Shown one piece after another: positions 101 to 555 of a stretch of DNA of 555 bases. This DNA is from a phage. Position numbers and translations under genes: made by a program. The stretch is from sequence record EF517110.1, one strand, 5' to 3'. The notes under the pieces are model-generated. The model saw only the letters and a list, made by a program, of their open reading frames with translations, was not told the origin of the DNA and made no database searches. The number at the start of each line of letters is the position of its first letter. The stretch's first letter is position 1.

Positions 101-107
101 GGAGGAG
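101..107 (+). promoter_or_regulatory. Shine-Dalgarno / ribosome-binding site for the 112-261 CDS
   Basis: GGAGGAG at 101-107, a near-perfect complement to the 16S rRNA 3' end, with a 4-nt spacer (ACTC) before the ATG at 112. A CATAAAG heptamer (94-100) sits immediately upstream. Confidence 0.7.
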
Positions 108-111
108 ACTC

Positions 112-261
112 ATGTTCCGCTTATTGTTGAACCTACTGCGGCATAGAGTCACCTACCGATTTCTTGTGGTACTTTGTGCTGCCCTTGGGTACGCATCTCT
201 TACTGGAGACCTCAGTTCACTGGAGTTTGTCGTTTGCTCTATACTCACTTGTAGCGATTAG
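112..261 (+). CDS. 19.5: Small hydrophobic protein, 49 aa (MFRLLLNLLRHRVTYRFLVVLCAALGYASLTGDLSSLEFVVCSILTCSD), T7 gp19.5-like, function unknown
   Basis: Seen in sequence: ATG at 112-114, open frame of 49 codons, TAG stop at 259-261, with GGAGGAG four bases upstream. It is the only ORF in the window with a ribosome-binding site. From memory the position (last gene before the right terminal repeat) and the N-terminal sequence match T7 gene 19.5; not verified by search. Confidence 0.8.
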   Translation: MFRLLLNLLRHRVTYRFLVVLCAALGYASLTGDLSSLEFVVCSILTCSD

Positions 262-371
262 GGTCTTCCTGACCGACTGATGGCTCACCGAGGGATTCAG
301 CGGTATGATTGCATCACACCACTTCATCCCTATAGAGTCAAGTCTTAAGGTATACCCATAAAGAGCCTCTA

Positions 372-409
372 ATGGTCTATCCTAAGGTCTATACCTAAAG
401 ATAGGCCAT
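372..409. other. Imperfect inverted repeat (10-bp arms, one mismatch) bracketing two heptamers
   Basis: Seen in sequence: ATGGTCTATC (372-381) against GATAGGCCAT (400-409), complementary at 9 of 10 positions (T376/G405 is the mismatch). The 18-nt spacer holds CCTAAGG and the start of CCTAAAG. Confidence 0.3.
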
Positions 410-500
410 TCTATCAGTGTCACCTAAAGAGGGTCTTAGAGAGGGCCTATGGAGTTCCTATAGGGTCCTTTAAAATATACCATAAAAATCTGAGTGACTA

Positions 501-555
501 TCTCACAGTGTACGGACCTAAAATTTCCCCATAGGGGGTACCTAAAGCCCAGCCA
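501..555. repeat. Start of the direct terminal repeat of a T7-like genome (partial; continues beyond the window)
   Basis: From 501 the sequence reads TCTCACAGTGTACGGACCTAAA..CCCCATAGGGGGTACCTAAAGCCCAGCCA, which matches the first bases of the T7 genome and terminal repeat as I recall them, apart from two apparent substitutions. The distance from the gene 19.5 start to this boundary (389 bp) also fits the T7 layout as I remember it. Not verified by alignment. Confidence 0.7.
527..538. other. Short GC hairpin inside the terminal repeat (C4-ATA-G5)
   Basis: Seen in sequence: CCCC (527-530), ATA (531-533), GGGGG (534-538). This can form a 4-bp G:C stem with a 3-nt loop. Confidence 0.4.

Follow-up and report, generated by a model that had tools for sequence, protein, structure and literature searches.

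The right end of the T7 genome carries a very short open reading frame (ORF), and this raises the question of whether the ORF encodes a genuine protein, whether that protein is inserted in the host membrane and what part it may play in the infection. T7 deprived of its one known holin still lyses, with a short delay (Heineman, Bull and Molineux 2009, PMC2680503), and for this reason a second membrane-permeabilising factor of T7 has been missing for years; gp19.5, the product of gene 19.5, is the published candidate. Once its role is settled, the lysis pathway of this reference phage would be complete, and the answer would also be informative for engineered T7 genomes, since deletion of the gene costs plaque size and burst.

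Identity and conservation of the ORF

The window (the whole 555-nt stretch of DNA analysed here) aligned over its full length with positions 39278–39832 of the T7 genome (NC_001604) with 98.9% identity, and represents the extreme right end of that genome. The ORF spanning positions 112–261 of the plus strand translates as MFRLLLNLLRHRVTYRFLVVLCAALGYASLTGDLSSLEFVVCSILTCSD. Judged by sequence comparison, this ORF is gene 19.5 of phage T7 in an S39F variant. The peptide scored 84.9 bits against the NCBIfam model NF040465 (T7_gp19.5; cut-off 33), matched PHROG 2193 with E=2e-24, and matched Pfam DUF5465 through residues 31–49 with E=3.6e-10 and 39.6 bits (cut-off 25). The original prediction had described the product as gp19.5-like. 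The family was correctly named, but the peptide is not merely similar to gp19.5; it is T7 gp19.5 itself carrying one substitution. As the prediction stated, this is the last gene of the T7 genome: gene 19.5 belongs to the 17.5-18-18.5/18.7-19-19.5 block, and only the right terminal repeat is reached without a further gene. The coordinates of the features recognised in the window are collected in Table 1.

Table 1. Features of the 555-nt window (coordinates counted from its first nucleotide)
Feature	Position in window	Strand	Remarks
phiOR downstream leader			promoter phiOR at T7 39229, 49 nt upstream of the window
Shine-Dalgarno GGAGG	101..105	+	read from the sequence; 6 nt 5' of the gene 19.5 ATG
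gene 19.5 CDS	112..261	+	T7 39389-39538 in the annotation; 49 codons plus TAG stop (259-261)
basic N-terminal segment, codons 1-16	112..159	+	R3, R10, H11, R12, R16; predicted cytoplasmic
most conserved family block, codons 10-21	139..174	+	spans the cytoplasmic boundary of the hydrophobic core
uncharged hydrophobic core FLVVLCAALGYASLTG, codons 17-32	160..207	+	predicted transmembrane segment
acidic C-terminal tail, codons 33-49	208..258	+	predicted periplasmic; E38, C42-x4-C47
S39F codon	226-228	+	window 227 C>T
inverted repeat, 19-nt arms	291-331		30 nt 3' of the gene 19.5 stop codon
right terminal repeat			first 55 bases included at the window end

Six positions of the window (7, 227, 345, 410, 523 and 526) differ from the T7 reference. 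All six are C:G>T:A transitions, and the one at 410 alone is common to close relatives of T7 (3 of the 16 compared). The change at 227 converts Ser39 of gp19.5 to Phe, at a position that is variable in the family (T, S, A or V, with F in two of the 113 aligned sequences). The region 3' of gene 19.5 contains the concatemer-processing hairpin. Promoter and terminator scans gave counts at background level, and an Rfam scan returned nothing credible (one snoRNA match, E=0.38). The class II terminator of the T7 concatemer junction was considered for the window and dropped, since its ATCTGTT signal presumably lies outside the window, past the distal border of the terminal repeat.

Comparison of the homologous loci indicates that gene 19.5 is real and conserved. 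A ribosome-binding site of the AGGAGG type, at equal spacing to the start codon, was present in 36 of 36 homologous loci, and in 35 distinct homologues, with identities as low as about 37%, all length changes are in-frame and the reading frame is uninterrupted. These homologues belong to Teseptimavirus, Teetrevirus, Berlinvirus, Pifdecavirus, Unyawovirus, Eapunavirus, Helsettvirus and Elunavirus. A search for conservation in protein and profile collections had been proposed together with the original prediction. With tblastn, 451 phage records were found to contain the ORF; profile searching of the protein collection gave 247 clusters at 90% identity, nearly all of 48–57 amino acids and located on contigs of about 39–41 kb. 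The ORF is thus conserved across the Studiervirinae, and the lack of conservation that the original prediction had named as a refutation does not apply. The profile was also run exhaustively against 1.84 billion cluster representatives, which yielded 31 clusters (clustering at 50% identity), all of proteins of 35–92 amino acids, and no link to any larger protein. On this sequence evidence the family is small and confined to T7-like phages. Throughout the annotated loci the homologues are placed 3' of the large terminase gene, and a distant metagenomic homologue lacking both cysteines is found in a locus where a holin gene (PF10746) is followed by the small terminase gene, two small genes, a T7-type large terminase gene and then the 19.5 homologue.

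Family signature and predicted membrane layout

The original prediction had drawn a small peptide with a basic N-terminus, a hydrophobic core, an acidic C-terminal end and three cysteines. A script check of the translation found every residue named in it, namely the basic R3, R10, H11, R12 and R16, the acidic D33, E38 and D49, and the cysteines C22, C42 and C47. Conservation in the family singles out only E38 among the acidic residues and only C42 and C47 among the cysteines, C22, D33 and D49 being variable. The core had been given as about 14 residues, FLVVLCAALGYASL (residues 17–30); this stretch is present, but the uncharged run is really longer and comprises 16 residues, from 17 to 32. Across the homologues the uncharged core measures 14–22 residues, and 14–16 in most of them.

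The alignment of 113 family sequences revealed a compact signature. The near-invariant residues are L8, H11, R12, T14, F17, L18, V20, G26, E38, C42 and C47; each of H11, R12, T14, F17, L18 and V20 occurs in no fewer than 110 of the 113 sequences, G26, E38 and C42 in 112 each, and C47 in 110. Either Y or W is found at position 15 and either R or K at position 16, so that codons 10–21 read as the motif (R/K)-H-R-x-T-(Y/W)-(R/K)-F-L-x-V-L, and positions 24 and 28 are occupied exclusively by A, T or S. Both the motif and the LG of the core persist in the remotest relatives, including those in which the cysteines are missing. Pooled pairwise Nei-Gojobori values, which are rough, gave a dN/dS of 0.20 for codons 10–21, about 1.3 for codons 22–37, 0.53 for codons 38–49 and about 0.6 (0.4–0.7) for the whole ORF (codons 2–49). 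These values indicate that codons 10–21 are under purifying selection, and within the T7 group the variable sites in codons 10–18 are all third positions. The codon-position entropies were 0.95, 0.57 and 0.95, with the least variation at position 2, as is expected of residues that are exchanged within one hydrophobic class. One-sided conservation on the helices, of the kind that would mark a packing face, was no better than in shuffled sequences (2175/5000, 3353/5000 and 898/5000).

The hydropathy of the core was assessed by comparison with other T7 proteins. The best 19-residue Kyte-Doolittle mean of gp19.5, starting at residue 17, was 1.59, which is only just at the usual threshold of about 1.6, and the core is short. 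The values obtained for the holin gp17.5 and the i-spanin gp18.5 were 1.47 and 1.35, respectively, whereas that of the o-spanin gp18.7 reached 2.04 (in the signal sequence region) and that of the small terminase gp18, used as soluble control, was 0.86. The AlphaFold2 model built from the 113-sequence alignment placed helices at residues 3–9, 13–31 and 34–45 with moderate confidence (mean pLDDT 65). The central helix would comprise 19 residues, enough for crossing the membrane, and the first one is short and amphipathic (hydrophobic moment of residues 2–12, 0.50).

The strongest point for the membrane layout is the distribution of charge. Every one of the 113 homologues carries a net charge of +3 to +5 in the N-terminal flank and of -1 to -4 in the C-terminal tail, which, according to the positive-inside rule, predicts an N-in/C-out orientation. 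The tail, acidic and moderately hydrophobic, would by the same rule be periplasmic. Hydropathy, the predicted 13–31 helix and the charge split therefore agree with the single-pass shape that had been proposed, with the N-terminus in the cytoplasm, and gp19.5 is supported as a predicted single-pass peptide with this topology. Membrane spanning of T7 gp19.5 had already been predicted with TMHMM by Heineman, Bull and Molineux in 2009 (PMC2680503), the AP5 genome paper lists a TMD in gene 19.5 (PMC4283147), and the GenBank note of phage LL2 reads 'TMHMM detected a N in C out transmembrane protein; T7 gp19.5-like'. A literature search found no experiment on the membrane location, the topology or the hole-forming or depolarising activity of gp19.5.

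Proposed role in lysis timing and competing explanations

The genetic evidence on gp19.5 comes from the literature. When T7 lacking the holin 17.5 was evolved, gp19.5-A24D was the sole strongly compensatory change; the same substitution in holin-plus T7 delayed lysis by 2 min. The gain in burst size from A24D was not significant (P=0.24) (PMC2680503). A second substitution, E38G, arose in a T7 line without endolysin activity and without gp16 (PMC2680503). Based on the appearance of these two changes in lysis-defective T7, Heineman et al. proposed gp19.5 as a second holin-like factor and as a candidate for the missing holin-like activity of T7. According to the same authors, an older deletion of 19.5 together with the M-hairpin lysed late and formed small plaques, much of the late lysis being possibly due to the loss of the M-hairpin (PMC2680503). 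The same A24D and E38G changes were found by Xu et al. (2021) in an independent holin deletion of T7, E38G being added on top of A24D later in the passage series, and the 19.5 mRNA rose 1.7- to 4.5-fold (PMC8365609). Jack et al. (2019) reported 19.5 as the most abundant transcript of T7+ just before lysis (PMC6938266). Deletion of 19.5 alone, in an engineering study of 2025, gave much smaller plaques and a burst of 152 against 224 in the wild type (PMC12153263), and a genome-reduction study of 2022 counted gp19.5 among the removable genes.

Both the membrane prediction and the holin-like, lysis-related idea were thus already published in 2009, and the finding adds nothing to the literature in the form in which it was first written. 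Its suggestion of a lysis-timing peptide agrees with the A24D and E38G genetics; the family is without an assigned function. What the family alignment contributes is that both recurrent adaptive sites are constrained, position 24 admitting small uncharged residues only and E38 being kept in 112 of the 113 sequences. For this reason A24D and E38G are more likely to disable or sharply retune gp19.5 than merely to improve a latent holin.

Taking these data together, gp19.5 is very probably what the prediction makes it, a small inner-membrane peptide tied to host lysis timing. As for the manner of its action, we give an even chance to a bitopic inner-membrane gp19.5, predicted as to insertion and topology, that would work as an accessory lysis-timing factor outside the holin families. 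Gene 19.5 is a true late gene, transcribed by the T7 RNA polymerase from phiOR. The basic 16 N-terminal residues would stay in the cytoplasm, residues from about 13 or 17 to 31 or 32 would cross the membrane as one short helix, and the tail, which is acidic, 17 residues long and carries E38 and the C42/C47 pair, would reach the periplasm. There gp19.5 may oligomerise or contact the holin gp17.5, and late in infection it might perturb or depolarise the inner membrane, helping to set the time of holin firing. In the presence of the holin this perturbation would advance firing, from which the 2-min later lysis of a phage with defective gp19.5 would follow; in the absence of the holin, wild-type gp19.5 would halt phage production without opening the cell, and its loss would then be beneficial. 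We infer that a depolarising action fits the genetics in these respects. It fits poorly with the addition of E38G on top of A24D, which is hard to explain if A24D is a null allele, and also with the lower burst of the clean 19.5 deletion, which is unlike the effect of later lysis alone.

A further proposal, which we consider unlikely, is that gp19.5 represents a new component of the lysis clock: a non-holin, single-span peptide that would act by depolarising the membrane or by binding gp17.5 through the invariant juxtamembrane motif and the periplasmic tail with E38 and the cysteine pair. As the product of the last gene, beside the concatemer-processing hairpin, it might even couple late DNA maturation to lysis, and A24D and E38G would then disable or retune a function that is harmful once the normal lysis route is broken.

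The proximity of the hairpin also suggests that the phenotypes of the region may be mainly a matter of DNA maturation, with gp19.5 aiding the processing of concatemers at the M-hairpin, or with deletions disturbing cis-acting packaging sequences, and with only an indirect link to lysis. Gene 19.5 ends only 30 nt upstream of the inverted repeat at 291–331, which shows hardly any variation in the T7 group (1 of its 41 sites is variable, versus 0.23 per site in the ORF) and whose centre, at T7 39588, lies 190 nt to the left of the terminal repeat, in the area that we take to be the mapped site of the processing hairpin. DNA identity between T7 and T3-type phages is about 75% across the leader, the ORF and the downstream region alike, and pS is about equal to pN in the comparison of T7 with a T3-type phage, which suggests some constraint at the DNA level. 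The work of Kim et al., as far as it is cited in Heineman et al. 2009 (PMC2680503), speaks for the same explanation, and the drop in burst on deletion of 19.5 would fit a packaging defect (PMC12153263). However, it is not obvious what a hydrophobic, charge-asymmetric and membrane-shaped peptide would do in DNA processing, the missense changes A24D and E38G affect constrained residues and were selected specifically in holin- or endolysin-defective backgrounds, and the purely synonymous variation in codons 10–18 reflects selection on the protein. An origin of the phenotypes in DNA maturation is, hence, assigned a low probability.

The tightness of the conservation leads to another possibility, that gp19.5 is a membrane peptide directed against a target of the host or of a competitor, off the lysis clock, such as a host membrane protein, a defence sensor or a superinfecting phage. 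The HRxT(Y/W)(R/K)FL motif, E38 and the cysteine pair are kept far more strictly than a plain anchor requires, as if they served to bind a specific partner; plaques still form without the gene, and the family is limited to T7-like phages. Against this, the literature search found no such activity of gp19.5, and the genetic signals so far concern lysis only. The same motif occurs, moreover, in phages of Escherichia, Yersinia, Klebsiella, Pectobacterium, Erwinia, Pantoea and Pseudomonas, and a phage-encoded or universal partner fits its retention across these hosts better than a host-specific one. We regard a target of this kind as improbable.

The short core allows yet another interpretation, in which residues 1–26 or 1–28 would be a cleavable Sec signal peptide and the product a secreted, anionic, periplasmic peptide of 21–23 residues with E38 and C42/C47. 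A positive n-region is followed by the short hydrophobic segment F17–L25 and then by G26, and in every homologue the residues that would stand at -3 and -1 are small (G26 in 112 of 113; A, S or T at position 28). The uncharged run of 14–16 residues in most homologues is nearer to an h-region than to a typical span, and signal peptides can be mistaken by TMHMM for N-terminal membrane helices. The family profile also aligned weakly with the signal peptides of antibody heavy chains in the PDB (E=0.011), an anecdotal match. The pattern of conservation argues in the opposite direction, since conservation and selection are strongest (H11, R12, T14, Y/W15, R/K16, F17, L18 and V20; dN/dS 0.20 from the rough pooled values) in what would be the n-region and the beginning of the h-region, and weaker in the would-be mature peptide, whereas in signal peptides the targeting part is normally the less constrained. 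In addition, Thr, which is unusual at -1 for signal peptidase I, stands there in 38 of the 113 sequences, the n-region of 16 residues would be unusually long, and some distant homologues without both cysteines keep the N-terminal motif. We therefore consider a cleaved and secreted product very unlikely.

Finally, a spurious ORF, its conservation being that of non-coding DNA at the genome end, has a practically negligible chance of being correct: the ORF is very short, its overall dN/dS is high (0.4–0.7, and about 1.3 in codons 22–37), and the flanking non-coding DNA is conserved at least as well, but it has a strong ribosome-binding site at fixed spacing, only in-frame indels in 35 sequences and a dN/dS of 0.20 over the motif, its hydrophobic character and charge asymmetry outlast the turnover of the sequence, and two laboratories obtained identical missense changes under selection.

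For the preferred explanation, an accessory lysis-timing peptide of the inner membrane, the family analysis provides residues for mutation, namely the HRxT(Y/W)(R/K)FL motif, positions 24 and 28, G26, E38, C42 and C47.

Comparison with holins, signal peptides and the gp19.5 family

Comparison with the holins gives a mixed result. Like gp17.5, gp19.5 is small and expressed late, its span is as hydrophobic as that of gp17.5, and in phages with a defective gp17.5 or endolysin it has a genetic link to the timing of lysis. The predicted N-in/C-out layout with a single span can be likened to that of class III-like holins. A likeness in function, which for a holin means inner-membrane lesions that let the endolysin out at a programmed time and early under energy poisoning, is suggested indirectly by the genetics of A24D and E38G, and the loss of gp19.5 shifts the time of lysis by only about 2 min. 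The C-terminus of a canonical holin is highly charged, hydrophilic, basic and cytoplasmic, whereas the tail of gp19.5 is acidic and predicted to be periplasmic. No significant match to a holin family was obtained: phrog_4712 matched with E=0.1, and with 2 of 17 diverse gp19.5 members (best E=0.032), and no Pfam holin model matched. Homology with holins was rejected, the phrog_4712 match being weak and failing across the 17 diverse members.

The search of the PDB with the family profile gave no solved relative; the matches were summation artefacts on TALE repeats, with no stretch significant alone, and the antibody signal peptides mentioned above. Two export signals were discarded on inspection of the sequence and of the family alignment. 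The Tat motif (S/T)-R-R-x-F-L-K is not formed by T14-Y15-R16-F17-L18-V19, where a single Arg precedes FL without the RR-x-FL spacing, as is also the case in the family consensus. A lipobox, [LVI][ASTVI][GAS]-C, is not formed by V19-V20-L21-C22, which has Leu at -1, and C22 is replaced by A, L, T, G or V in most homologues. With Sec signal peptides gp19.5 shares the positive n-region, the short hydrophobic stretch and the small residues at candidate -3 and -1 positions in all homologues; it differs from them in having its strongest conservation in the n-region and h-region.

The segments of pinholins and SAR proteins (phage 21 S68 and the T4 RI antiholin) resemble that of gp19.5 in being short, weakly hydrophobic and rich in small residues (in gp19.5, Gly, Ala, Ser or Thr at 7 of 16 positions). 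A role as a depolarising trigger would explain both the delay caused by A24D in the wild type and its benefit in the absence of the holin. In contrast with them, gp19.5 has one span only and no sequence similarity. The T7 endolysin gp3.5 is a cytoplasmic protein rather than a SAR endolysin. The system to which the peptide of the window itself belongs is the gp19.5 family (NF040465, PHROG 2193, DUF5465): it has the same length and the same genome position as the other members and scores above every curated cut-off, and its sole difference from the T7 reference, S39F, falls at a variable position.

Substitutions relative to the T7 reference

The window was compared with the T7 reference and six differences were found, at positions 7, 227, 345, 410, 523 and 526, all of them C:G>T:A transitions (four C>T and two G>A). 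When the phage collection was searched with the window, the top identity was 98.9% and no match was higher. Five of the six transitions were absent from the 16 close T7 relatives compared; the T at position 410 was common to three of these phages (loci L007, L008 and L016). Because the transition spectrum is one-sided at a divergence of ~1.1%, the window looks, on its sequence, like a laboratory T7 line mutagenised chemically or by heat, or exposed to a deaminase, rather than a natural variant. The existence of heavily mutagenised T7 populations of this kind has been noted in a published paper.

Two of the six transitions (523 and 526) lie inside the part of the window occupied by the right terminal repeat. 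The T7 records give a second match site for the window, which fits the left-end copy of this repeat. If that other copy were unchanged at these two sites, the two copies would differ from each other.

Features of the window and of related loci (L-numbers, DNA loci from related phages)
Feature	Sequence	Positions	Details
Inverted repeat	window	291-331	19-nt arms, 79% complementary, 3-nt loop
Dense short direct repeats	window	329-470	CCTAAAG / CCTATAG / TAAAGAG-type units; families D1-D4, D7, D9
Inverted pair	window	343-354 / 390-401	within the short-repeat stretch
Start of right terminal repeat	window	501-555	begins TCTCACAGTGTACGG...
HNH homing endonuclease gene	L022	46-468	
HNH homing endonuclease gene	L026	6-449	
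HNH homing endonuclease gene	L029		
HNH homing endonuclease gene	L031		

Gene calls and insertions around gene 19.5

In some homologues of gene 19.5 the ATG start is replaced by TTG or GTG (L008 position 1465, L017 position 1465 and L023 position 701), and the same ribosome-binding site precedes these alternative starts. Several entries of 69-92 aa in the protein database (e.g. P0004, P0012, P0067 and P0106) apparently represent gene 19.5 with its start assigned to an in-frame codon further upstream. In four other entries of the family (P0128, P0143, P0144 and P0147) the N-terminal motif and the hydrophobic core are kept and the C-terminal tails are unrelated. The tail of P0128 (LYSLVAIRVLVTE) is similar to a +2-frame ORF at window 164-280 (LYSLVAIRVFLTD), a resemblance which suggests that the divergent-tail members are either frameshifted copies or the result of sequencing errors, not genuine variants.

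In several relatives the large terminase gene and the 19.5 homologue are separated by an inserted HNH homing endonuclease gene, so insertions recur in the space between these two genes. Insertion at this point spares the promoter-19.5 unit, which is left intact.

Repeats downstream of gene 19.5

The inverted repeat lies 30 nt beyond the stop codon of gene 19.5. It is almost invariant, with one variable site in 41 across 16 phages of the T7 group, and is thus much more conserved than the 19.5 ORF. Conservation of the short-repeat stretch across the T7 group is fair, at 0.17 variable sites per position, and we take this stretch to be, probably, the short-repeat array known from the T7 genome ends. 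The centre of the inverted repeat corresponds to T7 position 39588, 190 nt to the left of the terminal repeat, and its position presumably matches that of the concatemer-processing 'M-hairpin' of T7.
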